Shown: one piece after another, positions 2,521 to 32,794 of the stretch
Position numbering within the stretch: the stretch's first letter is position 1
Layout of the letters: each line of letters starts with the position of its first letter
Origin: a virus
DNA length: 35,614 bases
Virus record (IMG/VR): IMGVR_UViG_3300048064_000264
Reading direction: 5' to 3' (one strand)
Position numbers and translations under genes: made by a program
Notes under the pieces: generated by a model
What the model was told of the DNA's origin: nothing
Database searches by the model: none
The model's input: only the letters and a program-made list of their open reading frames with translations

Positions 2521-2880
2521 TTAAGCCCCTGCCTTTTTTATATGAGAGTACAACTGTGCTTGTTTTGTAGCAAAGTATTTACCGCCTGCCACTATGTCGG
2601 GGTCATCATCCCAATGGCCTTCGCGGTAGTCTATGTCTGCGCGATTATCTAAATCGCCTGCAAACAGTTTTAGCACTTCGATGTCAACCAATGTGCTTTT
2701 CTTAATTTTGCCATGCAACCAAGCTTGCAGAAAATCACGGTAGTCGTGCATTAACTGGAGTGGCTCAATATTATCAGCGGCCTCCCAAAATTGTTCTACC
2801 TCTGTGCCAGTGTAATATTTCTGGCCAGTTAGAGATATGCCAAAAGTAATTGGGTTTTTAGTGCGCGGTGAATAAGCCAT
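2521..2880 (-). CDS. Hypothetical early protein, 119 aa
   Basis: ORF with an AAGGAG RBS 7 nt upstream of the ATG. Confidence 0.7.
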   Translation of the reverse strand: MAYSPRTKNPITFGISLTGQKYYTGTEVEQFWEAADNIEPLQLMHDYRDFLQAWLHGKIKKSTLVDIEVLKLFAGDLDNRADIDYREGHWDDDPDIVAGGKYFATKQAQLYSHIKKAGA

Positions 2881-2895
2881 GTGAGGCTCCTTTCT

Positions 2896-2911
2896 GGGGG
2901 GTTGCCCCCCC
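2896..2911 (-). other. Intercistronic G7-N3-C6 hairpin (read on the minus strand)
   Basis: Plus strand is GGGGGGTTGCCCCCCC. It starts 7 nt after the stop of the 2919..3068 gene and lies directly before the RBS of the 2521..2880 gene. Confidence 0.6.
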
Positions 2912-2918
2912 GCTAGGG

Positions 2919-3068
2919 TTAAAATTGTTGAATTGCGAAACCTTGGTCTCTGATAAATTGTTGCGCTTCCTCAAGTGTGTCAAAATTATAAAGCCAACCT
3001 CTGTAAGAAACTCTAAAACCGCATCCTACTTCTCTCTCATCGTAAATTTCGTATCCGTTGTATGTCAT
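2919..3068 (-). CDS. Small early protein, 49 aa (MTYNGYEIYDE...)
   Basis: Hand-translated ORF preceded by the conserved leader ATAAGCAAAAAAGGATAAATTAAAATG. Confidence 0.5.
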   Translation of the reverse strand: MTYNGYEIYDEREVGCGFRVSYRGWLYNFDTLEEAQQFIRDQGFAIQQF

Positions 3069-3098
3069 TTTAATTTATCCTTTTTTGCTTATACGTTA

Positions 3099-3127
3099 AT
3101 GATAGCATAACTTTTTGTAAGAGTCCA
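3099..3127 (-). promoter_or_regulatory. Early promoter cassette, degenerate copy (TGGACT-17-TATCAT)
   Basis: Aligned to the other cassettes through the shared CTTACAAA after the -35 and TAACGTATAAGC after the -10. Confidence 0.4.
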
Positions 3128-3173
3128 GACCTATTTTTGTAAAGTTACGTTACGTTATTTACAATTTTTGGAG

Positions 3174-3202
3174 TGGACATTTACAAATAAGTGTGCTATT
3201 GT
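3174..3202 (+). promoter_or_regulatory. Early promoter cassette on the plus strand (TGGACA-17-TATTGT)
   Basis: Followed by TTACATATAAGTTAAAAAAAGGAAAAATAAAATG, the same leader type as the minus-strand copies. Confidence 0.45.
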
Positions 3203-3233
3203 TTACATATAAGTTAAAAAAAGGAAAAATAAA

Positions 3234-3482
3234 ATGGCGAAAATTAATGCAAAAATAAATATGGAATGTTTGGACGTAACATTTTTAAAAAAGCAAATTA
3301 AAGTTTTAAAGGAAGTTACAAGACAGCAAAGCAAAATTGAAGGATATGAAGAAGTTTCAACAGCAAGATGCCATAACGATAAAATTGACGCTTTAGTTGG
3401 ACTTGAAATTATGTGCGAAAACATACTTGAACAATGCGGTGAAACGCCAACGAATGTTTCAGTAGAATTTTTTGCAAGTTAA
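3234..3482 (+). CDS. Hypothetical protein, 82 aa, plus-strand island within the leftward early arm
   Basis: ORF with its own promoter cassette upstream and a hairpin downstream. Confidence 0.6.
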   Translation: MAKINAKINMECLDVTFLKKQIKVLKEVTRQQSKIEGYEEVSTARCHNDKIDALVGLEIMCENILEQCGETPTNVSVEFFAS

Positions 3483-3489
3483 AAATAGT

Positions 3490-3507
3490 TAGCCCCTTCG
3501 GGGGCTA
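3490..3507 (+). terminator. Stem-loop TAGCCCC-TTCG-GGGGCTA
   Basis: Perfect 7-bp stem with a TTCG loop, 8 nt after the stop at 3482. The downstream T-tract is weak (TCTGCTATTCTT). Confidence 0.5.
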
Positions 3508-3525
3508 TCTGCTATTCTTATCTTT

Positions 3526-3960
3526 ATGGAGTTAATAAAGGTTGAAATAGAAGTGTCAGGGCAACCTCAGGGCAAGGGGCGGCCTCGTTTTACTCGAAAC
3601 GGTCATGCCTACACGCCAGAAAAGACACGCGATTATGAAACAAGAATACACGCCGCTTCATGGAAAAAAATGCGTGAATTAAAATTAGACCCTACAGCAA
3701 AATTTTGCCATGTTGAAATTATAGCATTTATGGATATTCCTAAATCATGGCCTAAAGTAAAAAGAATGGAAGCAGAATACGGTGCTATTCTTCCAACAGC
3801 TAAACCAGACATAGATAACATTATTAAATCTGCTTTAGACGGTATAGAGGGCGTTGTCTACTACAGCGATAACCAAGTCACTAGTGTCAATGCCAAGAAA
3901 GTTTACTGCCACCCAGAGCGTGGTCCAGTGCTTTATATGGCTATATCTTGGACAATATAA
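3526..3960 (+). CDS. rusA: RusA-family Holliday junction resolvase
   Basis: N-terminal GQPQGKGRPRF and the KPDIDNIIKSALDGIEGVVYYSDNQV motif are typical of the RusA family. Confidence 0.8.
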   Translation: MELIKVEIEVSGQPQGKGRPRFTRNGHAYTPEKTRDYETRIHAASWKKMRELKLDPTAKFCHVEIIAFMDIPKSWPKVKRMEAEYGAILPTAKPDIDNIIKSALDGIEGVVYYSDNQVTSVNAKKVYCHPERGPVLYMAISWTI

Positions 3961-6633: not shown

Positions 6634-7335
6634 ATGAGTAACCTAGTTTCAAACGTAATTCAAACAAAATTAATAGGTTCACCCACAAAAAAAGCAATTT
6701 TAATGTATATGGCAGATAAGGCCAGTGACGATGGAAGCGGTATTTGGGTGAGTAAAGGCAACATGGCGGCAGATTTAGAAATGTCTAGCCGCGCTGTTCG
6801 TCAGCATATAAAAGAAATGTTGGCAATGGGTGTTTTAAAGGTAACAGGGCAAAAAGAGTGCCGCCACGGTTACACTATAGATTATCAAATTAATTTACAA
6901 ATAGTTAGCCAATTACCTTCAACCAGACCACCCCTGAATGACGTTCACCCCTACCACGGCATGACATTCAGCCCTACCCCTGCACACGGTTCACCCAAAC
7001 CACCCAAAGAACCACCCAATGAACCTATTATATTAGTACGGTCTATTGATGTGGTTGTAGAACAGTTTAATAAGTTTTGGGAAAAGTATCCTAGAAAAAC
7101 AGCAAAACAGCCTGCACAAAAGGCATTTCCAAGAGCAATAATGAAAATTAGTTTTGAAGAACTTATGGAAAAATTAGATGTTTTTATAAAATTTCATAAA
7201 GATACAAAGAAACAATTTTTACCTCACGCCAGTACATGGTTAAATCAAGAGCGTTGGTATGATGAATATGAACAGCCAAATAATAATTTAGATTTACAAA
7301 AAACAGTTTTAAGCGAGATGTTAAATGCGAAATAA
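6634..7335 (+). CDS. Replication organiser/initiator-like protein (N-terminal wHTH, Pro-rich linker, C-terminal FWEKYPRK domain)
   Basis: SPTKKAILMYMADKASDDGSGIWVSKGNMAADLEMSSRAVRQHIKEM is typical of phage HTH replication proteins. AAGGAG RBS upstream. Confidence 0.55.
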   Translation: MSNLVSNVIQTKLIGSPTKKAILMYMADKASDDGSGIWVSKGNMAADLEMSSRAVRQHIKEMLAMGVLKVTGQKECRHGYTIDYQINLQIVSQLPSTRPPLNDVHPYHGMTFSPTPAHGSPKPPKEPPNEPIILVRSIDVVVEQFNKFWEKYPRKTAKQPAQKAFPRAIMKISFEELMEKLDVFIKFHKDTKKQFLPHASTWLNQERWYDEYEQPNNNLDLQKTVLSEMLNAK

Positions 7336-7786
7336 TGAACTTAAAGAAAAAACGTTAAAAATGTTGGGGCGGTTAAATGCTCCTAGAGCGGTGCAAAATA
7401 ACGATGAAAACATGAAAAGCGAAGCTGAGTTTCTATGCAACCAAATTATAAAATTAGCACCAAGCAAAAATTATATTGAATGGTTTCAAGACTTTGAGCA
7501 AAACATACTTTCTAATTTAGAAACTAGGACTTGGCCAACTGCAAAAGAAATTAGCAAATCAGCAAAAGCAATAGCACCAAAGCGGCCTGAATTTAGGGAA
7601 CTATCACCTGAAAAATACGAACCTAACGAACTTAAAATTAACGCCGATAGAATAAATAATGGTGAGCCAGTAGGCGAAAATTACATAATGGGCGCAATGG
7701 CTGAACAAATGGTAAGAGCGGGGCTTGTTGCAGAAAAACAACTAGCGCCATATAAAGAATACTTGAAACGTATGAAAAATGATTAG
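7325..7786 (+). CDS. Hypothetical protein, 153 aa
   Basis: ORF overlapping the upstream gene by 11 nt. Confidence 0.65.
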   Translation: MRNNELKEKTLKMLGRLNAPRAVQNNDENMKSEAEFLCNQIIKLAPSKNYIEWFQDFEQNILSNLETRTWPTAKEISKSAKAIAPKRPEFRELSPEKYEPNELKINADRINNGEPVGENYIMGAMAEQMVRAGLVAEKQLAPYKEYLKRMKND

Positions 7787-7883
7787 ATTATGTTACACAG
7801 GTAGCGAGGTCACGAACTCCTCCCTGTTCGAATTAGTTCCGCTTTATACTGCTTTTTTACGGACTGAATTACCTCGCCAACTT

Positions 7884-7910
7884 CCCTCGCCTTGCGCGGG
7901 GGATTTTTTT
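7884..7910 (+). terminator. Rho-independent terminator
   Basis: CCCTCGC-CTT-GCGCGGG stem with one mismatch, followed by GGATTTTTTT. Confidence 0.6.
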
Positions 7911-7919
7911 AGGTATAAT
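7911..7919 (+). promoter_or_regulatory. Candidate -10 element, AGGTATAAT
   Basis: TATAAT at 7914..7919 directly after the terminator, 26 nt upstream of the methyltransferase ATG. The -35 is weak (TTGCGC). Confidence 0.35.
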
Positions 7920-7944
7920 ATAAAACAACAGAAAGGGCGCACCC

Positions 7945-9261
7945 ATGCACGATGGACGGTCTTGGCCTGCTGATAAGGTTGAGCGAAGAAACATAGAAAC
8001 GCTTATACCGTATGCTAGAAATAGTCGAACTCATAGCGATGAGCAAATCACACAGATAGCGGCAAGCATTAAAGAATGGGGATTTACTAACCCTATTTTA
8101 GTCGATGCCCAAAACGAAATTATAGCGGGTCATGGCAGATTACTTGCGGCCAAAAAATTAAATTTAAAAGAAGTTCCTTGCATACAAGCTGATGATTGGA
8201 GTGACGCACAAAAACAAGCGTATGTAATAGCCGACAATAAATTAGCATTAAATGCGGGTTGGGACGAAGAACTTTTAAAAATAGAATTTAAAGAACTTAC
8301 TGATTTAAATTTTGATGTAGAATTAACAGGGTTTAGTTTAGATGAACTTGGCAACCTGTTTCACGAGCCAAAAACATATGACGATTACGAGCAAGGCAAA
8401 TTAACAAAAGTTTATGGTCAACCACCCTTTAGCGTTTTAGATACAAAAAAAGGCGATTGGGTAGAACGTAAAAAATACTGGCGTGACTTAATTGGTGACT
8501 TTGGTGAAAGTCGCGAGGGCAAATTAGCCAGTAACAATCTTATGGCTGAGTTAAATAGTGGTGTCAGTATTTTAGACCCTGTCTTAGCAGAAATAATAGT
8601 ACATTGGTTTGGTTTCGAAGGTGGGCAAGTCTTTGACCCTTTTGCGGGTGATACCGTTTTTGGCTTTGTTTCTGGTTTTAAAGGTATGAATTTTCAGGGA
8701 ATAGAACTTAGGCAAGAACAGGCAGATTTAAACCAACAGCGATGCGATGAATCTAAATTACCGTGTGTCTACTACACGGACACAAGCGAAAACATGGATG
8801 ACTACATAGAAAACGAAAGTATAGATTTAGTGTTTAGTTGCCCCCCATATGCAGATTTAGAAGTTTATAGTGATGACCCAAATGATTTAAGCAATATGAG
8901 CCATGATGACTTTTTTATGGTTTATAAAAGAATATTACAAAAAACTTATTCTAAATTAAAAAATAACCGTTTTGCAGTTATTGTGATGGGCGAAGTAAGA
9001 AACAAAAAAGGTCAGTACATCGGCACTATTCCTAAAACAATAGAAATAATGGAAAGCGCAGGCTATAAATATTACAACGAAATTATTTTAGTAAACAGCG
9101 TTGGCACACTTGCATTGCGCTCTGGCAAACAAATGCAGGCCAGTAGAAAAGTCGGCAAAATTCATCAAAACGTGCTTGTGTTTGTTAAGGGTGACGCCAG
9201 TGTTGCCGCCGATGAACTAGGCGAAATAGAAATAAATTTAGAGGAAGCAGATGGAGACTAA
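7945..9261 (+). CDS. ParB-like nuclease domain fused to a class-I (N6A/N4C-type) DNA methyltransferase-like domain
   Basis: N-terminus IETLIPYARNSRTHSDEQI...ILVDAQNEIIAGHGRLLAA matches the ParB/Srx fold. C-terminus has motif I VFDPFAGDTVFG, GIELRQE, and motif IV FSCPPYADLE. Confidence 0.8.
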   Translation: MHDGRSWPADKVERRNIETLIPYARNSRTHSDEQITQIAASIKEWGFTNPILVDAQNEIIAGHGRLLAAKKLNLKEVPCIQADDWSDAQKQAYVIADNKLALNAGWDEELLKIEFKELTDLNFDVELTGFSLDELGNLFHEPKTYDDYEQGKLTKVYGQPPFSVLDTKKGDWVERKKYWRDLIGDFGESREGKLASNNLMAELNSGVSILDPVLAEIIVHWFGFEGGQVFDPFAGDTVFGFVSGFKGMNFQGIELRQEQADLNQQRCDESKLPCVYYTDTSENMDDYIENESIDLVFSCPPYADLEVYSDDPNDLSNMSHDDFFMVYKRILQKTYSKLKNNRFAVIVMGEVRNKKGQYIGTIPKTIEIMESAGYKYYNEIILVNSVGTLALRSGKQMQASRKVGKIHQNVLVFVKGDASVAADELGEIEINLEEADGD

Positions 9262-9589
9262 AGGCTATCATGTCATAGCAGACGTTTGGTTAAACGAGTA
9301 CCCAGAAGATAACATTGCTGAAGTGCAATTAGGTATTGGCGAAGCTATAGAAGAATATTTAACTATTGTAGGCTTTAAAGACCACCAGTTTAACGAACAA
9401 GCATTTACAGCCGTTTGGTTATTATCCGAAAGTCATTTTAGCATTCACACCTACCCAGAGCGCAATTTTGTTAGTTTAGATTTATATACTTGTGGAGAAC
9501 GCGCCGCATCAACTTTGCAAATAATGGGTGACATAATGGGAAACTTCAACGTAAAAGAAGCAAACGTAAAGGTAATTAATCGTGGTTAA
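9251..9589 (+). CDS. speH: S-adenosylmethionine decarboxylase proenzyme, SpeH type (pyruvoyl enzyme)
   Basis: LLSESHFSIHTYPERNFVSLDLYTCG is the hallmark self-cleavage and active-site motif. The Glu60-Ser61 site is at 9428..9433. GAGGAAG RBS upstream. The start overlaps the upstream stop (ATGGAGACTAA). Confidence 0.85.
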   Translation: METKGYHVIADVWLNEYPEDNIAEVQLGIGEAIEEYLTIVGFKDHQFNEQAFTAVWLLSESHFSIHTYPERNFVSLDLYTCGERAASTLQIMGDIMGNFNVKEANVKVINRG

Positions 9590-9590
9590 A

Positions 9591-9797
9591 TTATGCGTTA
9601 TGCAAATGTGCGCTGTTACCAAGGTCGTTTACTGCATAAATCATAGTGCGAGTATCTTGGTAAGTGTCGGCATACCTAATAGCATCGGCATACTTAGTAA
9701 AGTCGCTTCTAGTACGGTTGCGGCCAAAGCCTCGTACTGCCGTAAAATATATAGCAGTGTCAAAACAAAATTGGCTATGTGTGTCTTCAAAGTGCAT
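9591..9797 (-). CDS. Hypothetical protein, 68 aa, antisense-oriented gene between speH and the small terminase gene
   Basis: Perfect AAGGAG RBS 7 nt before the ATG, with its own early-type promoter cassette. Confidence 0.55.
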   Translation of the reverse strand: MHFEDTHSQFCFDTAIYFTAVRGFGRNRTRSDFTKYADAIRYADTYQDTRTMIYAVNDLGNSAHLHNA

Positions 9798-9823
9798 TGT
9801 AATACTCCTTATTGCTGTAAACT

Positions 9824-9852
9824 ATACTATAACAAAACGTAAAGTATGTAAA
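9824..9852 (-). promoter_or_regulatory. Early promoter cassette (TTTACA-17-TAGTAT)
   Basis: Minus strand reads TTTACA TACTTTACGTTTTGTTA TAGTAT, then the leader AGTTTACAGCAATAAGGAG. The -35 abuts the small terminase ATG. Confidence 0.45.
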
Positions 9853-9853
9853 G

Positions 9854-10234
9854 ATGGAAAATAAAAAAAATGTAGGCGGTAGACCAAAAATAGTTTTAAC
9901 GGATGAGCAAAAACGTGAAGTTGAAACATTAGCGGCAGTTTTAACAACAGAACAAATAGCTGATTATTTTAGTATAAGCAGGCGGGTTTTCTTTGATATA
10001 TTAGAAAGAGATGAAGAGGTTTCTGCACTATATAAAAAGGGAAAAGCAAGGGCTGTTGGATTTGTAGCGCAAAATTTAATACAAAAAGCAAGAACAGGTG
10101 ATTTAGGCGCACAAATATTTTATTTAAAAACTAGGGCAGGGTGGAAAGAAACACAACGCATCGAGGGCGCAGGCGACACAGGCGAACACGTTATAGCTTA
10201 TAAGTGGTTGGACGATGACAACGAGGACGATTAA
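9854..10234 (+). CDS. terS: Terminase small subunit
   Basis: GGRPKIVLTDEQKREVETLAAVLTTEQIADYFSISRRVF is an HTH. It lies immediately upstream of the large terminase and overlaps it. Confidence 0.75.
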   Translation: MENKKNVGGRPKIVLTDEQKREVETLAAVLTTEQIADYFSISRRVFFDILERDEEVSALYKKGKARAVGFVAQNLIQKARTGDLGAQIFYLKTRAGWKETQRIEGAGDTGEHVIAYKWLDDDNEDD

Positions 10235-11474
10235 CTACCGCCCCCGAAAGCTAGTTAAAAGTTTTCATAAACGCCAAGAAAGATTTGCTGTAATTGTTGC
10301 CCATCGTAGGTTTGGCAAAACAGTGGCGGCTATAAACGATTTAATAAAAACGGCATTAACCACAGACCGCAAAAATGTCAGGGTTGCTTATATTGCGCCA
10401 TACTACAGACAGGCCAAAGCAATAGCGTGGGACTACCTATTAGAATATACACAAGACGTTGAAGGTGTTGTTTACAATACTTCGGAGCTTCGTGCCGACT
10501 TTCCTAATGGGGCTAGATTTAGGCTATTTGGGGCTGACAACTACGATGCTATGCGTGGTTTGTATTTTGATAGCGTTGTACTAGACGAGCCTGCCGACTT
10601 CCCTGCAAACGCTTGGCCAATGGTTATCAGGCCATCATTAGCAGACAGGCAAGGTAAAGCGACTTTTATAGGAACGCCGAAAGGAAAAAATGATTTTTGG
10701 GAAATTTATAACAATGCACAAAAAAACGAAAATTGGTTTTGTGCCATGTATAAAGCAGATGAAACCGAAATATTAGATAAATTTGAATTAGAAGAAGCAA
10801 AGGAAACTATGGGCGAAGATAGGTTTGCTCAAGAGTTTCTTTGCAGTTTTGAAGCGGCAATACAAGGTTCTTATTATGCTGTTGAAATGAAGAAAGCAAA
10901 AACCGAAAAAAGAATTACATCTGTTCCATATGACCCTTCAACAAGTGTAATTGTAAGTTACGACTTAGGAATTGGTGATAGTACCGCTTTGTGGTTTGCA
11001 CAGTTTGTTGGTCAAGAAATACATTTAATAGATTATTACGAAAATAGTGGTGTAGGTTTAGACCATTATGCAAAAGTTTTAGATGAAAAAGGCTATCATT
11101 ACGAAGCGCATATTATGCCACACGATGTAAGAGTAAAAGAATTAGGCACTGGCAAAAGTCGTTTAGAAACTTTAGATAATTTAGGAATAAGAAATATTGA
11201 AATAGCACCCAGATTAAGTATTGATGACGGAATACAAGCTTCAAGGTCTATGCTTAACAAATGTTGGTTTGACGAAAAAAAATGTGAGCGTGGTATTGAA
11301 GCATTGTTGCAATACCGTAGGGAGTTTGATGAAAAGCTAAAATCTTGGCGTGGTCGCCCTTTGCACGATTGGACTTCACACGGCGCAGATAGCTTTAGAT
11401 ATTTGGCTGTTGGCTATAGGCCAAGCATAGATTGGGGCGAACCTATAAAACGTAATCTAAAGGGTATAGCGTAA
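10215..11474 (+). CDS. terL: Terminase large subunit
   Basis: Walker A AHRRFGKT, Walker B VVLDEPADF, and a C-terminal RNaseH-like nuclease region (YDLGIGDSTALWF...HDW). Confidence 0.9.
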   Translation: MTTRTINYRPRKLVKSFHKRQERFAVIVAHRRFGKTVAAINDLIKTALTTDRKNVRVAYIAPYYRQAKAIAWDYLLEYTQDVEGVVYNTSELRADFPNGARFRLFGADNYDAMRGLYFDSVVLDEPADFPANAWPMVIRPSLADRQGKATFIGTPKGKNDFWEIYNNAQKNENWFCAMYKADETEILDKFELEEAKETMGEDRFAQEFLCSFEAAIQGSYYAVEMKKAKTEKRITSVPYDPSTSVIVSYDLGIGDSTALWFAQFVGQEIHLIDYYENSGVGLDHYAKVLDEKGYHYEAHIMPHDVRVKELGTGKSRLETLDNLGIRNIEIAPRLSIDDGIQASRSMLNKCWFDEKKCERGIEALLQYRREFDEKLKSWRGRPLHDWTSHGADSFRYLAVGYRPSIDWGEPIKRNLKGIA

Positions 11475-11516
11475 TTTAATTTTATATGTTATAGAGATTT
11501 TTATAGGAGGGTGGCT

Positions 11517-11687
11517 ATGGCAAAACCAGTTTGGAAAAGTAAAAATCCAAAACCTAAAAGTAAGCGGCGCAAAATGACCGCCAAGGAAGAAGCCAAAGCG
11601 AAGCGCACCGCAAAAGCGGCAGGCCGACCCTACCCTAATATGGTTGACAATTTACGAGCTATGAAAAAGAAGAAAAGGAAAAAGTAA
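11517..11687 (+). CDS. Polybasic small protein, 56 aa (Lys/Arg-rich)
   Basis: Hand-translated as MAKPVWKSKNPKPKSKRRKM...RAMKKKKRKK. AGGAGG RBS upstream. Confidence 0.55.
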   Translation: MAKPVWKSKNPKPKSKRRKMTAKEEAKAKRTAKAAGRPYPNMVDNLRAMKKKKRKK

Positions 11688-11731
11688 TGCCCTACGGTAA
11701 AGGTAAGAAAAAAGGCGGCAAGAAAAAATAA
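11687..11731 (+). CDS. Possible 14-aa polybasic micro-ORF (MPYGKGKKKGGKKK)
   Basis: Its start overlaps the upstream stop (TAATG), and its stop abuts the next ATG (TAAATG). Confidence 0.3.
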   Translation: MPYGKGKKKGGKKK

Positions 11732-12130
11732 ATGGCTTACACTAGCTTGATGGATATGTTTGACGGCGGCGGCGCAGGCCGTTCTGGTGCAACATTTCAA
11801 GGTGGTGGGCTATTAAGTGCATTAGCAAACAGGTTTGCCAAGCCTATAGGTTCTCAGCGTAGAAGCTCAGAAAACCTATCTAATATGATTAACCAGTTAC
11901 AAAGCGGTGGAATGTCAAACAAATCCATTCCCAATATTATTGATATGACTGGCGAAGTAACAGACTTGTCAGGGGTTGGCATACCAGAAAAAATAAATGT
12001 AAGTGAATTAGATGACATATCTTTTAAAGAATTTTCAGAATTAGCTTTGCCAGTTTTTGAAGAAAAAGGTGTAACTCCATCTTATGATGATTTATTAAGG
12101 GCATATGTTAATTATTTAAATAGGCCATAG
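11732..12130 (+). CDS. Hypothetical protein, 132 aa
   Basis: ORF in tight operon spacing. Confidence 0.65.
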   Translation: MAYTSLMDMFDGGGAGRSGATFQGGGLLSALANRFAKPIGSQRRSSENLSNMINQLQSGGMSNKSIPNIIDMTGEVTDLSGVGIPEKINVSELDDISFKEFSELALPVFEEKGVTPSYDDLLRAYVNYLNRP

Positions 12131-13459: not shown

Positions 13460-14671
13460 ATGGCAAAACTATTTAATAGAGCCAAGATGAACACCTCAAC
13501 GACTGGGGCGGGAACCATTACGTTGGGCAGTGCAGAAACAGGCTTCCAAAGTTTTGCTGATGCAGGCGTAGCAAATAGCGATGTTGTTCAATATGTCATT
13601 GAGGATGGCTCAAGTTGGGAAATAGGAACTGGTACTTATAGTTCTAGTGGAACAACATTGACACGTTCCCCTACTGAAAGCAGTGGTGGCGGTAGTGCGC
13701 TATCCCTCAGTGGTAGTGCAAAAGTTTCTATTACTGTTATTGCTGATGATTTTAAAAGGCTACAATTAGCAGGGGCTACAAAGGCAGAGGCTACTTCTGG
13801 CGGTTTAGATGTTACTGGAAATATTGTTGTTAGTGGCAATGTAGATGGTAGAAATGTTGCATCTGACGGAGCAAAACTAGATGGCATAGAGGCAAGTGCA
13901 ACGGCTGACCAAACTAACGCAGAAATAAGGGCGGCAGTGGAAGCGGCTTCAGATAGTAATGTGTTTACTGATGCTGACCACACTAAGTTGAATGGCATTG
14001 CGGCTAGTGCAACTAATGTAACTAATACAAATCAGCTAACAAATGGCGCAGGGTTTCTTACTGGATTTTCTGGTATGACTTCAAGTCATGTAGTTAATTC
14101 TTTAGGATTTACGCCTCTTGCCCCTGATGATGACGCTCAATTAAATTCTCTTGAAATAGGTGATACATCAGGTCCAATATTACAGGAAGAGCGTAACCAA
14201 AATTTAAGGATTAAAGGTAGCAGTAGTACAGATTGCGGTATTGTCGGTATTGGTTCAAATAATGCGTTTTGTTTTCAATTATATGGCGCAGGCAGTCAAC
14301 ATGGATTTTTAAGGTCTACTTGGGGTTCTTGGGGTGCTTATGCTGACACTAGTGGAAACTGGACTGCCACAGGAAATGTCACAGCGTATTCAGATGAAAA
14401 ACTAAAAGACAATATTGAGCCAATAGAAAACCCTATCGAAAAGATAAAAGCTATCCAAGGTGTAACTTATAACCGTAACGACATTGAAGGTAATCCACGA
14501 CAAACTGGTGTTGTTGCCCAACAAGTCGAAAGAGTTTTGCCAGAGGTGGTTATGACTAATGACGAAGGAATAAAAACCGTAGCTTACGGAAATATGGTTG
14601 GCTTGCTAATCGAAGCAATAAAAGAACAGCAAGATGAAATAGAGCGACTAAGAGCGATACTTGAGGGTTAA
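13460..14671 (+). CDS. Tail fibre/spike protein with a C-terminal S74 intramolecular chaperone domain
   Basis: Fibre repeats [13 protein letters not shown] and [14 protein letters not shown]-terminus [12 protein letters not shown]...[15 protein letters not shown]...[17 protein letters not shown]. Confidence 0.8.
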
Positions 14672-14673
14672 AT

Positions 14674-15657
14674 ATGACGTTACAAAGCAGTGGAGCAATA
14701 TCACTAGCAAATATTGCGTCTGAATTTGGAGGCTCTACACCACACTCTTTAAGCGAATATTATTTAGGTCATAGCGGAATACCTTCGAGCGGCACAATAA
14801 GTATGAGCCAATTTTATGGTACAAGCTCACCTTCATATGTTTACGCAAGTGGCGGCAGTGTTTCGCAAAGTGGCAATTACAGAACACATTATTTTTATGG
14901 TGCTGGATATTTAAATGTTACAAACTCTGGCAATGCGGCAGGGTCACAGTCTGTGACTGCCTTAATCATTGCAGGGGGCGGTGGCGGCGCAGGAATAGGC
15001 GGCGGTGGTGCAGGGGGTTATAGATACCTTTCATTTAATATTGGAACAGGCAACCATTACGTTGGAGTAGGCGGCGGTGGCGGCGGTTCGTATGGAAATT
15101 ACAATACAGCAAAAGGTGGCAATGGTGGCAATAGTTCGTTTTACGGCTATACATCAACTGGCGGTGGTGGCGGTGCGGCAACCGAAAACTGGTACGGGAC
15201 AGTGCCTTACGCCCCTGCGGGAAGCGGTGGTTCTGGCGGCGGCGCAGGGTTTGCGACTTCTGTAACAACAACCTACTCAGGCGGTAGCGGTATTAGTGGC
15301 CAAGGTCATAACGGCGGTTCTGGTTCTAGACTAGCAGGCGGCGGTGGCGGTGGTGCGGCGGCGGCAGGGCAAAACGGTCACGCAAGGGCAACCCATCATG
15401 GCGGAAACGGTGGTTCTGGCTCTTATCATTTCAGTGGAGCCAGAGGCGGTGGCGGCGGTGGTGTTACTTGGTCTTACAATGCTCCAAGCCCTGCAAGTGG
15501 CGGTTATGGTGGTGGCGGCAACGGTGGTGCGATTAATACTCACCAAGTAAGCGCAGGGTCAACGAACACTGGTGGCGGCGGTGGTGCGGCTTGGACAACT
15601 GGCGGCTCTAAAAATGGCGGTTCTGGTATTGTTATTATTCAGTATAGGTTTCAGTAG
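14674..15657 (+). CDS. Glycine-rich protein (Gly_rich/ALK-LTK-like poly-GGGG beta-structure candidate)
   Basis: N-terminal SSGAISLANIASEFGG motif, then many GGGGxG runs (IIAGGGGGAGIGGGGAGGY...). Confidence 0.6.
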   Translation: MTLQSSGAISLANIASEFGGSTPHSLSEYYLGHSGIPSSGTISMSQFYGTSSPSYVYASGGSVSQSGNYRTHYFYGAGYLNVTNSGNAAGSQSVTALIIAGGGGGAGIGGGGAGGYRYLSFNIGTGNHYVGVGGGGGGSYGNYNTAKGGNGGNSSFYGYTSTGGGGGAATENWYGTVPYAPAGSGGSGGGAGFATSVTTTYSGGSGISGQGHNGGSGSRLAGGGGGGAAAAGQNGHARATHHGGNGGSGSYHFSGARGGGGGGVTWSYNAPSPASGGYGGGGNGGAINTHQVSAGSTNTGGGGGAAWTTGGSKNGGSGIVIIQYRFQ

Positions 15658-16065
15658 ATGGCGCATTTTGCAAGATTAGATGGAAACAAAGTTATTGATA
15701 TTGTTGTAGTAGATAATAACGATATTATAGGCGCAGACGGAAATGAAAGCGAAGCTGTTGGTGTTGTTTTTTTAAAAGATATGTTTGGTCAAGATACGGT
15801 CTGGAAACAAACAAGTTGGAATTATAATTTTAGAAAAAACTATGCGATGATTGGCGGCACTTACGATGCTGACAAAGATGCGTTTATTGATGTAAAGCCT
15901 GATTTTGCGTCTTGGCAGTTAAATGAAGAAACTTGCATATGGGAAGCACCAGTACCAATGCCAGATGACCACGAAACAAATCCTGTCCGTTGGGATGAAG
16001 AAAACCAAGAATGGGTTGATTTTACCCCATTAGGTGACGAACCAGATTTAGGAGAAAAACCGTAA
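15658..16065 (+). CDS. Hypothetical protein, 135 aa (MAHFARLDGNKVIDIVVV type)
   Basis: ORF abutting its neighbours. This N-terminal pattern recurs in tail regions of many phages. Confidence 0.6.
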   Translation: MAHFARLDGNKVIDIVVVDNNDIIGADGNESEAVGVVFLKDMFGQDTVWKQTSWNYNFRKNYAMIGGTYDADKDAFIDVKPDFASWQLNEETCIWEAPVPMPDDHETNPVRWDEENQEWVDFTPLGDEPDLGEKP

Positions 16066-16729: not shown

Positions 16730-17581
16730 ATGGCAATTAGTATTTCAAAACCGACTATTGGAGGTAGTGAGGGAACATGGGGGCAAACAATCAATGATGC
16801 GCTTGATGTAATTGTCAATGCCGCTAATGGTACGACAGGCACGATTGCGCCAAATTTAACAACAATAACAATAAACGGTGTTTCTAGTAGCGTAACAGCC
16901 CCTAAATTAGATTTATTAAACAGTTTAAGCACTTCTGGAACTGTTATGCAAAGTTTTGTTTTAGAAGATGGTGATGGAACAGAAGTAACTATTACCGAAG
17001 GTAAAGAAGTTAAGTTTGTAGAAGGTCACGGTATAGACATTAACTGGACTGACACTTCAACAGGTTCAGACGCAGACCCTTACGATTTAGAGTTTTCGCT
17101 TAAAACCGATATGCGAATAAACAGTAATACAGATGTTTATACTGGCAATTCTAACGACTACATTCATTATGATACTGATGTAGGTATGCGTTTTTATACC
17201 AACCAAGCTGAAGATATGCGGCTGACAGACGGTGGAGACTTGCACGTTGATGGAAATATTATTGGTTATTCTTCAACAATTTCTGACCAAAGGTTAAAGG
17301 GCAACATTAATAAAATAGACAACGCATTAGATAAACTCATGCAAATTAATGGTTACACATTTACTTATAATCACGATGGAAAGCAAAGCGCAGGGGTGAT
17401 AGCGCAAGAAGTTGAAAACATTATGCCAAGCGCAGTTCAAAGCACTAATTTAGTTTTTAACGAAGATAATAATGTTGAGTTTAAAACAGTGCAATATGAC
17501 CAACTTCATGGCTTGTTAATCGAAGCAATAAAAGAGTTAAAAGCTGAATTAGAGGAACTTAAAAATGCCTCTGCCAAGTAG
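16730..17581 (+). CDS. Second tail fibre/spike protein with a C-terminal S74 intramolecular chaperone domain
   Basis: C-terminus SDQRLKGNINKI...GVIAQEVENIMPSAV...[17 protein letters not shown]. Confidence 0.8.
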   Translation: MAISISKPTIGGSEGTWGQTINDALDVIVNAANGTTGTIAPNLTTITINGVSSSVTAPKLDLLNSLSTSGTVMQSFVLEDGDGTEVTITEGKEVKFVEGHGIDINWTDTSTGSDADPYDLEFSLKTDMRINSNTDVYTGNSNDYIHYDTDVGMRFYTNQAEDMRLTDGGDLHVDGNIIGYSSTISDQRLKGNINKIDNALDKLMQINGYTFTYNHDGKQSAGVIAQEVENIMPSAVQSTNLVFNEDNNVEFKTVQYDQLHGLLIEAIKELKAELEELKNASAK

Positions 17582-25879: not shown

Positions 25880-28024
25880 ATGAAAATCGAGGCAATGGAT
25901 GACGAAACAGTTCAAGGCATTATACAAAAGGCCGTGGAAGATGCCGTTGATTTTATAGAAGCTGAAATAACTGAACCTAGACTAAAATCACAACGTTATT
26001 ACGATGGCGAAGTTGACATAGGATACGAAGACGGTCGCTCAAGAGTCGTAGCTACAAAATGCCGTGAAGTGGTAAAAAGTTTAAAACCATCTATCCAACG
26101 TGTTTTTCTAAGCACTGAAAACGTTGTAGAGTTTGTTCCCAGAATGCCAGAAGACGTTCAGGTTTGTGAGCAAATGACCAAGTTTGCTAATTATAAATTT
26201 ATGCAAAATAACGGTTATAGATTGCTCAACGATGTTTTTCAGGACGCGATGGTAAAGAAAACTGGCATAGCCAAAGTAATGTTTGAAGATATTGCAAAAA
26301 CTGAAGTACACGAAGCGCACAACCTGACAGATGACGAGTTTGCTTATTTAACAGAACCCGACAATGTAACGGTTTTAGAGCATACAAAAAATTCTATAGG
26401 AACTTTAGATGAAGAAGGCATAGGCACTGAAACAATTATGCACGATGTAAAAATGAGCATCGAAATAACAAACGGTGATATTACTATAACTTCTATACCT
26501 CCAGAAGAATTTTTTGTAGATAGAAACGCTCGCAGTATTGATGACTTTTTTGTGATTGGCCACAGAACAGATATGACTATTGGCGATTTGCTTGCAATGG
26601 ATTTTGACCATGAAGAAGTTCATAACTTGCAAGGCAATATGTCAACGTTTGAAGCTGAAAGCGAGTTTGAACGTAGAAATTACGCTGTTGACGAGGACGA
26701 TGATGAAAGTGCCGACCCAACAAGTAGAAAAGTCGTTGTAACAGAAGCTTACATGAAAATAGATAAAGAAGGCACTGGAAAGCCTTTAATGTATCGTTTT
26801 ATTCTAGGCGGTTCTAGTTACAAAGTTCTTTCGTGTGAATTAGCAGATGAAGTGCCGTTTGCAATATTTGAAGTTGACCCCGAACCTCACGCCTTTTTCG
26901 GTAGCAGTTTGGTTGACTTAGTTATGGACGACCAAGATGCGGCAACTTCCATGCTTCGTGGCGTTTTAGATAACGTTGCGTTGACTAACAATCCTGGTCT
27001 CGAAATAGTAGATGGCCAAGTTTCAGTTGATGATTTGCTTAACAACGAAATAGGAAGAATAGTGCGAGTAAAGCAAGCGGGTTCTATTCGTGAGCAAGTT
27101 GTTCCTTTTACGGCGGGTTCAACCCTTCCCGCCCTACAATATTTTGACCAATTAGTTGACAATAAAACAGGTATAAGCAAAGCCTCACAAGGCTTAAACG
27201 CTGATGTGTTGCAGTCAGCAAGTGCAACAGCAATAGCGGCAACAATGCAAGGGGCGGCAGGCCAAGCAGAAGTAATAGCGCGAAATTTAGCAGAAGGCGG
27301 TATGCGAAGATTATTTAAACTTATAGCGCACTGCATAATAAATAACGCAGATAAAGAAGAAATAATAAGATTAAATAATGAATTTGTTGAAGTAGACCCA
27401 CGCAGTTGGAACGCTGACGCTGATATGATTGTAAACGTTGGCATAGGAACAGGTCAGCAAGCCGAAAAATCAGCAGTGTTGCGCGAAACTTTGCAAATGC
27501 AAATGTCAGTTTGGCAACAGTACGGAGCGCAAAATGGCTTAGTAACCATGACAAACGTTCGAAATACTTTGGCTGATTTATTAGGTTCAGTAGGTTTAAG
27601 AAACACAGACCGTTACTATTTACCAGTAACTTTTGAAAAAGAACAAGAATTAATAATGGCAAAACAAGAAGAAGCTCAAATGCAACAGCAAATGATGCAA
27701 CAAGGGCAACAGCAAACAGACCCGAACCAAGCATTTATGGCAACTGAGCAAATGAAAGCACAGACAAGGGCGCAAGTAGATATGGCCAAATTGCAACTTG
27801 ACGCGCAGAAAGCGGCTAGTGATGATAAATTTAGAATGCACGAATTAGCTATGAAAGACGATTTACAGCGTGATGAAATGGTGCAAGAATTAGCGGTTAA
27901 GGTTGCGGAAATATTAGGTAAATATGAAACTGCGGTTGACACAACGGCAATAAAAGCCGAACAAGATAAAGTAAGACCGCATAATAAAGAAATGATGAAT
28001 GGATTACAAGAAAAGAGCTATTAG
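25880..28024 (+). CDS. Portal protein
   Basis: 714 aa, located directly upstream of scaffold and capsid. It has a long Gln-rich C-terminal coiled coil, like the barrel region of some podovirus portals. Confidence 0.75.
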   Translation: MKIEAMDDETVQGIIQKAVEDAVDFIEAEITEPRLKSQRYYDGEVDIGYEDGRSRVVATKCREVVKSLKPSIQRVFLSTENVVEFVPRMPEDVQVCEQMTKFANYKFMQNNGYRLLNDVFQDAMVKKTGIAKVMFEDIAKTEVHEAHNLTDDEFAYLTEPDNVTVLEHTKNSIGTLDEEGIGTETIMHDVKMSIEITNGDITITSIPPEEFFVDRNARSIDDFFVIGHRTDMTIGDLLAMDFDHEEVHNLQGNMSTFEAESEFERRNYAVDEDDDESADPTSRKVVVTEAYMKIDKEGTGKPLMYRFILGGSSYKVLSCELADEVPFAIFEVDPEPHAFFGSSLVDLVMDDQDAATSMLRGVLDNVALTNNPGLEIVDGQVSVDDLLNNEIGRIVRVKQAGSIREQVVPFTAGSTLPALQYFDQLVDNKTGISKASQGLNADVLQSASATAIAATMQGAAGQAEVIARNLAEGGMRRLFKLIAHCIINNADKEEIIRLNNEFVEVDPRSWNADADMIVNVGIGTGQQAEKSAVLRETLQMQMSVWQQYGAQNGLVTMTNVRNTLADLLGSVGLRNTDRYYLPVTFEKEQELIMAKQEEAQMQQQMMQQGQQQTDPNQAFMATEQMKAQTRAQVDMAKLQLDAQKAASDDKFRMHELAMKDDLQRDEMVQELAVKVAEILGKYETAVDTTAIKAEQDKVRPHNKEMMNGLQEKSY

Positions 28025-28247
28025 AGCCAGAAATTTATTAAATAACGAAGAATTTCAAGGCATTATAAAAGATTTGCGAGAAGACCAATTACGGTTAATC
28101 GCGAATACGAGCGCGTCAGAGGTGGAAAAACGTGAGGATGCTCATGCCATTTATCGGGCGTTAAATGAAATTGAGTTTTTATTAAGGGCTGATGTAGATG
28201 CTGAAAAACTCATAGAACGAAAGGCAAGGGACGCTCATGAGCACTGA
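27999..28247 (+). CDS. Hypothetical head-assembly-region protein, 82 aa
   Basis: ORF overlapping the portal 3' end and the scaffold 5' end. Confidence 0.5.
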   Translation: MDYKKRAIRARNLLNNEEFQGIIKDLREDQLRLIANTSASEVEKREDAHAIYRALNEIEFLLRADVDAEKLIERKARDAHEH

Positions 28248-29238
28248 ACCTAACAGTGGCAGTATAAATGATATTGCAAATTTAATATCAGAGCCACCGC
28301 AAAAATTAGAAGATAATCTAAACGAAGTTGCTGAAGCTGTTATTGAGGAACCTCAGGACACTGAGACTGAAGAAACGGTTGAAGTAGCCGAAAGTGAAGA
28401 TGTCGCTGACCACGATAGCGATGATGAAGAACAAATCGTGGATGAGGATATGCTAAATGACGACGAAGCCGTTCCCTTTGAACTTTCTGATGATATGGAG
28501 CTAGAGTATAAAAGCGATGGCGAAATTAAGAAGGCAACCATTGGGGAGCTAAAGCGAAGTGCCGCAGGACAAGATTATATCCAAAAGGGTATGGAAGATA
28601 ATGCAAAAGTTAAAAAACAACTTGAGCAAACTACCCAATCATTGCAGGAAGACCGTCAAAAACTTAATGCAATATTACAAGCGTACGAAAATGGTGACGC
28701 TCCAAGACCACCAATAAAACCAACCAAGGAGCTACAAGATAGTGACCCTATAGGTTATTTGGAGGCTATGGAGCAATATCGGCAAGACGTTGAGCAATTT
28801 GGTAAGTTTAAGGCAGAAGCCGAAGAACAAGCTAAAGCTAATGAACGTGTAATGTATGAACAAGACCAACGATATGCGGCAGAACAAGCTGAAATATTGA
28901 AAAAGGAAATGCCAGAGTTAAATGACCCTGAAAAAAGTAAAAAGCTTTTGGAAGACATTCAAACTGTTGCTGTTGATTATTATCAAGTTCCTATCGAGAT
29001 ATTAGGCAATCTAAAACATACTTGGGAATTTAAAATTGTTCGTGATGCTGTTGCCTACCGCAAACTACAAACTTCTAAAACTAAGGTTGTAGAAAAAACC
29101 AAAGGCGCAAGGCCAATGGTAAAAGCGGGAGCAAAAAGAACTGCAAGTGGTACGAAAGTGATAAAGCAGAAAGAAGCGCGGTCAAGAATGCAAAAATCTG
29201 GGTCACTAGACGATGTGACTAATTATCTCTTGTCTTAA
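28237..29238 (+). CDS. Scaffolding protein
   Basis: Acidic N-terminus, a coiled-coil-rich middle and a basic C-terminus. It lies between portal and capsid. Confidence 0.7.
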   Translation: MSTEPNSGSINDIANLISEPPQKLEDNLNEVAEAVIEEPQDTETEETVEVAESEDVADHDSDDEEQIVDEDMLNDDEAVPFELSDDMELEYKSDGEIKKATIGELKRSAAGQDYIQKGMEDNAKVKKQLEQTTQSLQEDRQKLNAILQAYENGDAPRPPIKPTKELQDSDPIGYLEAMEQYRQDVEQFGKFKAEAEEQAKANERVMYEQDQRYAAEQAEILKKEMPELNDPEKSKKLLEDIQTVAVDYYQVPIEILGNLKHTWEFKIVRDAVAYRKLQTSKTKVVEKTKGARPMVKAGAKRTASGTKVIKQKEARSRMQKSGSLDDVTNYLLS

Positions 29239-32398: not shown

Positions 32399-32778
32399 TA
32401 GCACAACTATTAGGTCCAGTTGCAAGTTTAGCAGGCTCTTGGCTTGATGCAAAAACAACCAAACAAGCGGCTGAAGCCAAATTAAAGCTAACGGAGGCAG
32501 AAGCAAAAAGTAAAATATTGCTCTCAAAAGAAACATCGGTTGCCGATTGGGAGCGGATAATGGCGCAAGGAACTCAAAACTCATGGAAAGACGAATATTT
32601 GGTTGGCTTGTTCAGTATTCCATTAATTTTAGTGTTCACAGGTGAAAAAGGCCGTCAGATCGTTGCAGAGGGCTTTATAGCGTTGGAAAGTATGCCAGAG
32701 TGGTATCAATATACGTTAGGAGTTATCGTAGCCAGTAGCTTTGCCGTCAGGTCTGCCACAAAGTTTTTTAGAAAATAG
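32395..32778 (+). CDS. Putative holin (resembles GTA-type 3-TM holins)
   Basis: An amphipathic AEAKLKLTEAEAK N-terminus plus hydrophobic segments LVGLFSIPLILVF and YTLGVIVASSFAV. It lies directly upstream of the endolysin. Confidence 0.5.
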   Translation: MIAQLLGPVASLAGSWLDAKTTKQAAEAKLKLTEAEAKSKILLSKETSVADWERIMAQGTQNSWKDEYLVGLFSIPLILVFTGEKGRQIVAEGFIALESMPEWYQYTLGVIVASSFAVRSATKFFRK

Positions 32779-32794
32779 TAATAGGAAAATTAAA

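Follow-up and report, generated by a model that had tools for sequence, protein, structure and literature searches.

The window analysed here is a 35,614-nucleotide (nt) stretch of viral DNA, IMG/VR record IMGVR_UViG_3300048064_000264, and its subject is a pair of overlapping genes that lies upstream of the terminase genes. The first gene encodes a protein of 438 amino acids (aa) in which a ParB/Srx-like domain is fused to a class-I methyltransferase (MTase) fold. The second encodes a small pyruvoyl-type decarboxylase of S-adenosylmethionine (SAM, AdoMet), abbreviated AdoMetDC. Among the homologues of the MTase-fold protein, one form of the cofactor loop is always accompanied by an adjacent AdoMetDC gene and the other forms never are. 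We consider it probable that the two proteins work together through decarboxylated SAM (dcSAM), and the comparison of homologues speaks against SAM as the cosubstrate of the putative transferase. In the full chain, dcSAM would be made by the decarboxylase, and its aminopropyl group would be put on a base of the phage DNA by the ParB-guided MTase-fold enzyme as a protective modification; here the balance between right and wrong seems about even to us. Within this chain we infer the dcSAM cosubstrate, the transfer of aminopropyl rather than methyl, the DNA acceptor and the protective role.

The two genes contain the following features:

7945-9261 (+): gene of 438 aa, ParB_N plus amino-methyltransferase fold, G-D..F clade (open reading frame (ORF), Pfam, PHROGs, Foldseek)
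7975-8385 (+): ParB/Srx-like N-terminal domain, aa 11-147 (PF02195, ParB PHROGs, confident region of the AlphaFold2 (AF2) model)
8392-9240 (+): class-I MTase-fold catalytic domain, aa 150-432 (phrog_498, phrog_12517, Foldseek)
8635-8667 (+): motif I cofactor loop DPFAGDTVFGF, with D236 (loop position +5) at nt 8650-8652 and F239 (+8) at nt 8659-8661
8833-8850 (+): motif IV FSCPPY, an exocyclic-amine alkylation motif in which Cys replaces the usual D/N/S
9241-9245 (+): GAGGA Shine-Dalgarno sequence for the decarboxylase, within the 3' end of the MTase gene and 5 nt before the ATG (read from the sequence)
9251-9261 (+): 11-nt overlap of the decarboxylase start with the MTase stop, ATGGAGACTAA (read from the sequence)
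9251-9589 (+): class-1b pyruvoyl AdoMetDC gene of the SpeH/SpeD type, 112 aa (Pfam, NCBIfam, residues)
9428-9433 (+): processing site E60-S61 of the decarboxylase
9446-9448 (+): catalytic H66 of the decarboxylase
9491-9493 (+): catalytic C81 of the decarboxylase

The association between loop type and decarboxylase was surveyed in cultured phages, on IMG/VR contigs and in bacterial and archaeal genomes, with about 190 unique homologues in all. For this purpose, 267 loci were taken from three sources (IMG/VR via the MTase, IMG/VR via the decarboxylase, and one genome per prokaryotic species), every MTase ORF was aligned to a family profile and the loop columns were read; the viral and cultured set consists of unique sequences having enough 3' flank. 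Within that set, a same-strand AdoMetDC ORF is found with all 49 proteins whose loop reads G-D-x-x-F, overlapping or abutting the MTase stop in 48 of them, whereas an AdoMetDC stands beside none of the 65 proteins with a G-G-x-x-R or G-E-x-x-K loop. Prokaryotic genome contigs give the same picture (28/28 versus 0/50). When both sets are combined, the same-strand decarboxylase accompanies 77/77 G-D-x-x-F proteins versus 0/115 others, mostly in an overlap with the MTase stop. Co-occurrence of this loop with speH had been set as a test beforehand by a first-pass annotation of the DNA, which had proposed that the two proteins act together, and the survey bore the prediction out. The naive Fisher p of 1e-55 for the association ignores the single origin of the linked proteins and so overstates the evidence.

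Full-length MTase homologues occur in about a dozen cultured phages. Two of these carry the cassette, Pseudomonas/Stutzerimonas phage ZRG1 and Croceibacter phage P2559S, both with the loop FAGDTVFG. Funu2, Listeria B054, HCTV-2 and Mae-JY30 read FAGGSVRG or a near variant and have no adjacent decarboxylase; the GG-type phages B054, phiFL3A, Funu2, HCTV-2, Mae-JY30 and AlanGrant lack an AdoMetDC throughout the genome, none of them being among the 148 tblastn hits for it. Seen from the decarboxylase, the pairing is the same: of the roughly 55 IMG/VR decarboxylases nearest to that of the window, each one with its 5' flank present has such an MTase immediately before it, and more distant decarboxylases (cyanophage-like and on giant-virus contigs) have no such MTase in front. 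The hosts of the cassette span Proteobacteria, Bacteroidota, Firmicutes, Verrucomicrobia, the candidate phyla radiation (CPR) and archaea. Those from genome contigs include Alphaproteobacteria, Flavobacteriales, Porphyromonadaceae, Oscillospiraceae, Gemella, Akkermansia, Gracilibacteria, Methanolobus and a nanoarchaeon.

The survey also brought up individual loci with features of their own. In the G-D..F loci L096, L188, L214, L240 and L250, the decarboxylase lies 212-816 nt 3' of the MTase without overlap, with space for a small ORF in between. Phage P2559S (L002, 1711-2490) has a gene for an ASCH-domain protein directly 5' of its G-D..F MTase. In ZRG1 (L001, 9041-9640), an 'Nmad5 family putative nucleotide modification protein' is encoded about 4 kb 3' of the cassette, past the terminase, and this phage may have a second nucleic-acid modification function. 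A small third loop class (L025-L027 and L102; L025 at 2692-3678) reads FAG-E-ST-K-G, has the motif IV FTSPPY with the classical Ser and has no decarboxylase nearby; its specificity may be distinct, e.g., for N4-cytosine. Finally, a stretch in Pseudanabaena phage Pam4 (ON014756.1, 46092-46514; H104) is 54.6% identical to MTase aa 294-434 and sits under a gene annotated as 'pyridoxal-phosphate dependent enzyme', which may be a mis-annotation or another fusion partner of the catalytic half.

Next to the linkage, the positions of the residues that distinguish the linked proteins point to a change of cofactor. Motif I loops are compared here by position, with the acidic residue that closes strand beta-1 (D231) taken as 0:

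Plant spermidine synthase (SPDS), which uses dcSAM: G-G-G-D-G-G-V at +2 to +8
E. coli spermidine synthase (SpeE), which uses dcSAM: G-G-G-D-G-A-M at +2 to +8
Putrescine N-methyltransferase (PMT), which uses SAM: Ile at +5 and Thr at +8
Beta-class DNA methylase 2zie (DPFAGTGTT), which uses SAM: F-A-G-T-G-T-T at +2 to +8, with Thr at +8
GG clade, no decarboxylase: F-A-G-G-S-V-R at +2 to +8
Small third class, no decarboxylase: F-A-G-E-S-T-K at +2 to +8
Decarboxylase-linked clade, AdoMetDC adjacent: F-A-G-D-T-V-F at +2 to +8

The last Gly of FxGxG is lost throughout the family, as the FAGGS of the unlinked homologues shows, and what is specific to the linked proteins is the Asp at +5 and the exchange of Arg for Phe at +8. 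In SpeE, the pocket with the +5 Asp is too small for the SAM carboxylate, and the Asp forms a salt bridge to the aminopropyl ammonium (PMC1282579, PMC3725402). In plant SPDS, the exchange D103I suffices to replace aminopropyl transfer by methyl transfer, and with V106T at +8 the SAM carboxylate gains a hydrogen bond; Ile at +5, Thr at +8 and one further change together make an efficient methyltransferase (PMC3725402). The linked phage clade has gained an acidic residue at +5 and lost a basic one at +8, and its local charge has gone from +1 to -1, as one would expect for a cofactor without a carboxylate. By the canonical motif I register and the predicted secondary structure, not by three-dimensional superposition, D236 would be equivalent to the SpeE Asp: strand beta-1 is predicted at 228-231 and helix A at 237-245, making D236 the last loop residue before the helix, like the Asp of SpeE.

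Part of this had been seen in the first-pass annotation. Its readings DPFAGDTVFG and SCPPY stand, and the Asp that it singled out proves to be clade-specific; the loss of the last Gly, noted there alongside the Asp, is a trait of the whole family and is not linked to the decarboxylase. The literature agrees with the role that it had given to the Asp of the SpeE GGGDGG loop in disfavouring the SAM carboxylate (PMC1282579, PMC3725402). Its central proposal of a pair acting together through dcSAM is now well supported by the exclusive linkage, the co-divergence of both proteins, their behaviour as a cassette, the loop register and the change from Arg to Phe at +8, on which that annotation had not remarked.

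The second protein of the pair has the sequence properties of an AdoMetDC. It matches Pfam AdoMet_dc (PF02675) with 67.6 bits (cutoff 25) and aligns over positions 2-112 of 112 with the NCBIfam equivalog TIGR03330, scoring 74.3 bits, 1.4 below the cutoff of 75.65. The catalytic residues of the Thermotoga maritima enzyme are S63, H68 and C83 (residue roles in PMC10407285), and the ES, H and C residues are conserved to at least 90% among 69 linked decarboxylase homologues. One of the linked enzymes has been studied: the decarboxylase of P2559S, which adjoins a G-D..F MTase and is 32% identical to that of the window, restores spermidine in E. coli without speD (PMC9992855). Judged by its conserved residues and this active orthologue, the linked decarboxylase is probably a real AdoMetDC, and the enzyme of the window is predicted to be a supplier of dcSAM. 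Some phage homologues of the AdoMetDC family have turned into ornithine or arginine decarboxylases (PMC9992855, PMC10407285).

A word-indexed search with the decarboxylase returned 11 close relatives and nothing further. When 1.8 billion representative proteins were searched by profile, the decarboxylase family was repeatedly found fused to SpeE, in both domain orders. Four metagenomic proteins (P0256, P0228, P0231 and P0260) are such fusions of spermidine synthase and class-1b AdoMetDC in one polypeptide, again in both orders. By analogy, the MTase-fold protein of the phage cassette would stand where SpeE stands in the decarboxylase fusions. The metagenomic ORF P0276 (333 aa), considered as a fusion of the cassette itself, was rejected as an internal-deletion or chimeric ORF: its ParB and MTase residues 1-256 (to 'GIEL', strand beta-2) run straight into the middle of the decarboxylase.

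In a neighbour-joining tree, the G-D..F proteins form one clade, but the depth of this clade, its invariant loop residues, the co-divergence of the pair and the turnover of its flanks make the retention telling all the same. Identity within this clade goes down to 0.40 and ranges between classes from 0.33 to 0.51, so that its depth equals that of the whole MTase family. D236 and F239 are invariant across it. Seven positions in about 290 residues discriminate the classes, and two of the seven fall in motif I. Moreover, the distance matrices of MTase and decarboxylase co-vary (Mantel r = 0.60, a value reached in 0 of 999 permutations). Among 83 unique pairs, the 5' neighbours belong to 41 unrelated families and the 3' neighbours to 32. 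Because the flanks turn over in this way while the two genes stay together, the pair is a mobile, co-inherited cassette that remains intact while its surroundings are exchanged. No SpeE-like gene was found within 3 kb of any cassette.

These data bear on an explanation in which the two genes have independent functions: the decarboxylase would boost spermidine through the SpeE of the host in aid of packaging or translation, its neighbour would be an ordinary SAM-dependent methylase, and both, being late genes, would travel together in the packaging locus while the loop drifted. AdoMetDC is the commonest polyamine gene of phages and has been read in that way, in a paper that never mentions a methyltransferase or ParB (PMC9992855). 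Most phage AdoMetDCs (those of cyanophages, Thermus phages and giant viruses) are not beside such an MTase, and a single clade origin permits hitch-hiking. We nevertheless consider this explanation unlikely. It has to accommodate a retention in 77 of 77 cases, mostly with overlapping frames, down to 40% identity, across many phyla and amid flanks of 32-41 families, as well as the co-divergence of MTase and decarboxylase and the placement of the invariant discriminating residues on the positions of carboxylate recognition. Furthermore, many of the hosts belong to groups in which spermidine is made mainly by SpeE-independent routes; these routes predominate in Bacteroidetes, gut Firmicutes and Epsilonproteobacteria (PMC10599626). 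At the level of such groups, a lone decarboxylase would thus produce dcSAM without a consumer. The first-pass annotation had listed an ordinary methylase that merely sits beside a polyamine gene among its options, and the linkage, the co-divergence, the turnover of the flanks and the residue positions disfavour it.

The architecture of the MTase-fold protein suggests what its substrate might be. Its N-terminal part matches Pfam ParB_N at aa 23-90 with 32.4 bits (cutoff 26.3) and the ParB family phrog_620 at 3.9e-55, and the 438-aa protein matches phrog_498, 'DNA methyltransferase', at 4.6e-133. The Pfam family N6_N4_Mtase (PF01555) is matched at aa 293-419 with 39.3 bits (cutoff 26.7) and over profile positions 1-110 of 221 only, a partial coverage that arises because motif I is located upstream, as in a circular permutation. 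The motif order is I before IV, and alignments to PDB entries show the circular permutation relative to the beta-class MTases 2zie and 8urk: in both, the motif I segment of the query pairs with the C-terminus of the chain and the motif IV segment with the N-terminus. The AF2 model is confident (mean predicted local distance difference test, pLDDT, 86.5), including the ParB/Srx-like domain, and its best Foldseek matches are Trm11, TrmN and Trm14, which are exocyclic-amine methyltransferases of canonical motif order. The structure paper on Trm11 reports an unconventional binding of sinefungin and does not describe contacts of motif I to the amino-acid moiety of the cofactor.

Motif I departs from FxGxG(T), with F-A-G-D-T-V-F against F-A-G-T-G-T-T in 2zie. 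Compared with (D/N/S)PP(Y/F/W), motif IV keeps PPY and has Cys as its first residue, preceded by Ser; it is identical in the linked and unlinked clades. The remaining cofactor and catalytic motifs do not vary over the whole depth of the G-D..F clade (D231, G235, E254 for the ribose, D279 for the adenine, and CPPY). The arrangement described in the first-pass annotation, a ParB/Srx-like N-terminus and a class-I core in the order I to IV followed through a stop/start overlap by a gene of the SpeH type, is therefore confirmed by Pfam, PHROGs, the permuted PDB alignments and Foldseek for the first gene, by the 11-nt overlap with GAGGA upstream, and by AdoMet_dc, the full-length TIGR03330 match and the processing and catalytic residues for the second. 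The overlap would give translational coupling of MTase and decarboxylase.

The locus has the layout of a ParB-Tls locus, with ParB_N fused to an MTase fold and terminase genes following nearby on one strand. ParB-terminase loci are recognised as phage DNA-modification loci (PMC4738411), and there is a demonstrated case of a phage ParB activating a DNA dioxygenase (PMC13229309). Because of these two precedents, we propose that the ParB domain would target the enzyme to DNA or activate it there around the time of packaging. The proposed sequence of events starts with the small pyruvoyl enzyme, which would decarboxylate host SAM to dcSAM, a step shown for the P2559S orthologue. The MTase-fold enzyme would then bind dcSAM rather than SAM, as linkage and loop suggest: the change from Arg to Phe at +8 would remove a residue that pairs with the SAM carboxylate, and the Asp gained at +5 would act as in SpeE. 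With its unchanged (C)PPY motif, the enzyme might move the 3-aminopropyl group to the exocyclic amine of a base in the phage DNA (N6 of adenine, N4 of cytosine or N2 of guanine), and methylthioadenosine would be released, by analogy with SpeE and its nucleophile at the motif IV position. The base would become a cationic aminopropyl derivative that could shield the genome from host nucleases and partly neutralise the charge of the DNA. Stated for the whole clade, the proposal is that phages from many lineages of bacteria and some of archaea have N-(3-aminopropyl) purine or cytosine in their DNA, made by a ParB-tethered, SpeE-convergent dcSAM enzyme, and we would give this general form slightly less than an even chance.

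The same linkage and the same remodelling of the loop would be explained equally well if the enzyme had switched its cofactor and remained a methyltransferase. The conversion of the SAM pool to dcSAM would then starve or inhibit host restriction, BREX and methylation, and the phage enzyme would methylate from dcSAM, giving N6-methyladenine (m6A), N4-methylcytosine (m4C) or N2-methylguanine (m2G). That phages counter restriction by attacking the SAM pool is well established, for example by the SAM lyase of T3, and speaks for this possibility, as does the identity of motif IV in both clades, which is expected if the acceptor chemistry is unchanged. In addition, dcSAM retains the sulfonium methyl, which is intrinsically easier to transfer. 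A natural methyltransferase that uses dcSAM is not known to us, nor did literature searches turn one up. A special cofactor for an ordinary methyl group would also be roundabout, and the sole dcSAM/SAM pair studied in this fold ties the motif I Asp to aminopropyl transfer (PMC3725402). On balance, a cofactor-switched methyltransferase seems to us distinctly improbable.

With dcSAM still as its cofactor, the enzyme might also transfer aminopropyl or methyl to an acceptor other than DNA: to a base of tRNA or rRNA, to a protein such as one of packaging or of the capsid, or to a small amine. With a small amine, it would be a non-homologous, ParB-tethered spermidine/polyamine synthase. Structurally, it comes closest to tRNA m2G methyltransferases, some databases name the homologues RsmD-like, and the (D/N/S)PPY signature serves protein and RNA amino-methylases as well (PMC7641767). 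A phage AdoMetDC with an aminopropyltransferase would, moreover, yield spermidine without the SpeE of the host. However, the ParB domain at the N-terminus and the position next to the terminase genes indicate DNA, and the Pfam and PDB sequence matches are DNA N6/N4 methylases. The protein has neither the SpeE-like N-terminal domain nor the putrescine-binding acidic residues, and its motif IV has Cys where SpeE has Asp. A non-DNA acceptor is thus very unlikely in our view. Least credible of all, and close to being dismissed, is a pure SAM drain, in which the decarboxylase only depletes SAM against host defence and its neighbour is a degenerate methylase with a ParB-linked structural or regulatory role: the canonical FxGxG Gly and the carboxylate-binding Arg are both lost, but the GG clade lacks the last Gly too, the remaining catalytic and cofactor motifs are invariant across a deep clade, and the invariant D236 and F239 indicate selection on a working pocket. 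A drain on SAM, which was among the options of the first-pass annotation, may still occur as an additional effect.

Several points weigh against DNA aminopropylation from dcSAM. Since the G-D..F clade is monophyletic, the association of loop and decarboxylase is one origin followed by retention, and not 77 independent events. The equivalence of D236 with the SpeE Asp is drawn from register and predicted secondary structure, and motif I could not be matched to SpeE by profile-profile alignment: a global hhalign run of the MTase domain against the single E. coli SpeE produced a meaningless alignment, and a local run against a profile of five SpeE sequences reached a probability of 2.5% and aligned only beta3-beta4. 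In that local alignment, 'DLVFS|CPPY' lies opposite 'DVIIS|DCTDP', which puts Cys299 at the position of the SpeE catalytic Asp; the other dcSAM ligand of SpeE, its motif IV Asp, is hence a Cys in the phage enzyme. An acidic residue at +5 is insufficient by itself, and the idea that the Asp alone marks dcSAM use was rejected, the G-E-x-x-K class being acidic (Glu) at +5 and basic at +8 without a decarboxylase. The profile search of 1.8 billion representatives yielded no true MTase-decarboxylase fusion, its long hits being SpeE-AdoMetDC fusions or tandem decarboxylases. The closest structural neighbours by Foldseek are tRNA enzymes, and nothing in the data separates methyl from aminopropyl transfer. 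To our knowledge, neither the GG nor the GD clade of the ParB-fused MTases has been characterised biochemically, and no member of either has a known substrate or product. The literature reports no phenotype for the DNA of P2559S or ZRG1.

Comparison with known systems helps to place the cassette. With SpeE (PF01564) and its AdoMetDC, known as speED operons and as SpeE-SpeD fusions, the phage pair has in common the Rossmann methyltransferase fold, the Asp at +5, a non-polar residue at +8, the genetic coupling to a class-1b AdoMetDC and a predicted nucleophile at the motif IV position. It differs in having no SpeE membership in Pfam, in the low hhalign probability given above, and in the ParB domain that stands in place of the N-terminal tetramerisation beta domain of SpeE. 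The catalytic motif IV Asp and the diamine acceptor of SpeE likewise contrast with CPPY and the predicted DNA-base acceptor of the phage enzyme. By sequence, the protein belongs to the ParB-fused phage methyltransferase family and not to the SpeE family, with a cofactor site that appears SpeE-like. Its nearer relatives are the ParB-fused N6/N4-type MTases of phrog_498, such as gp77 of Listeria B054 and gp36 of Enterococcus phiFL3A, with which it shares architecture, core, motif IV and terminase-side position at 37-43% identity. These read FAG-G-SV-R-G and never have a decarboxylase, whereas the clade of the window reads FAG-D-TV-F-G and always has one. The switch between PMT and SPDS offers a further parallel, in which the same two motif I positions change within the same fold together with the cosubstrate and the transferred group; in the phage clade the direction is apparently reversed, from a SAM user to a dcSAM user, and family and acceptor differ.

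The expected outcome, a cationic alkylamine on a base and a block to nucleases, resembles that of the alpha-putrescinylthymine of PhiW-14 and of alpha-1,3-diaminopropanylthymine (PMC13458397). The route is different, as these bases are made from 5-hydroxymethyl-pyrimidines via kinase and pyrophosphate intermediates and amine transferases, and not by sulfonium alkyl transfer or with an AdoMetDC. The concept of aminoalkyl donation to a nucleobase is otherwise known from RNA. The 3-amino-3-carboxypropyl (acp) transferases Tsr3, TYW2 and TapT use SAM to donate its acp arm, rather than methyl, to an RNA base; they keep the carboxylate and, except for TYW2, have folds other than that of the methyltransferases. 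As the first-pass annotation had supposed, the literature gave no described precedent: no MTase-AdoMetDC linkage and no dcSAM-dependent or aminopropyl modification of nucleic acids was found, in a coverage that did not include Iyer et al. 2013 (in Nucleic Acids Research), who are said to have first defined the ParB-terminase modification loci.

The window itself is a segment of a phage genome, with the gene order replication initiator, recombination genes, terminase, tail fibres, portal, scaffold, major head protein and endolysin. The remaining features around the cassette and among the late genes are:

7883-7903 (+): terminator-like GC-rich hairpin with a T-run (consensus scan and sequence)
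7914-7919 (+): TATAAT box, 26 nt 5' of the MTase ATG, a candidate -10 element (read from the sequence)
9854-10234 (+): small terminase subunit (phrog_309, 2.6e-15)
10215-11474 (+): large terminase subunit (Pfam Terminase_6N, phrog_2)
25880-28024: portal, among the late genes after the block of tail-fibre and structural genes
28237-29238: scaffold, among the late genes
29254-30246: major head protein, among the late genes
32741-33262: endolysin, among the late genes

The hairpin at 7883-7903 is a predicted terminator and would mark the boundary between the replication module and a unit of MTase, decarboxylase and terminase genes. TATAAT at 7914-7919 is a weak candidate for the -10 element of the cassette, for which the scan scored no -35 partner. 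The cassette would be expressed just before the terminase genes, probably together with them. A 64-aa ORF at 7779-7973, which runs across the hairpin and the TATAAT box and into the MTase start, is unlikely to be a gene.

The order of the late genes is unusual, since the terminase (from 10215) is followed by tail-fibre and virion structural genes, and the portal, scaffold, major head protein and endolysin come only after these, up to 33262. Two tail-fibre-like genes (13460-14671 and 16730-17581) have a common C-terminal domain, their C-termini matching the same tail-fibre PHROGs. Between them, an ORF at 14674-15657 (phrog_2295, function unassigned) lies in a stretch of raised G+C content, which is 0.50 at 15001-16000 compared to about 0.40 elsewhere in the window. 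Scans for tRNA genes and Rfam families over the whole window (1-35614) gave no matches. A megablast search of 7000-12000 against 50,697 phage records found no near-identical DNA; by this result the phage is not a described isolate. The nearest relatives of the window are short marine and aquatic metagenomic contigs.

The cassette belongs with the ParB-linked DNA-modification modules of phages, and an aminopropyl-DNA chemistry, if confirmed, would be categorically new. The enzyme would then be the first aminopropyltransferase to act on nucleic acids, dcSAM would for the first time be used beyond polyamine synthesis, and natural DNA modifications would gain a new class in which a base is directly aminoalkylated from a sulfonium cofactor. 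A natural two-residue cofactor switch in the methyltransferase fold would also be useful for engineering writers of amine handles on DNA. Even with methyl as the group transferred, a natural methyltransferase that depends on dcSAM and is coupled to SAM depletion would be a novelty. For the phages themselves, should the prediction hold, the behaviour of their DNA towards restriction and CRISPR and in sequencing would be affected, and a widespread subset of what are regarded as AdoMetDC auxiliary metabolic genes would in fact supply the cofactor for DNA modification.

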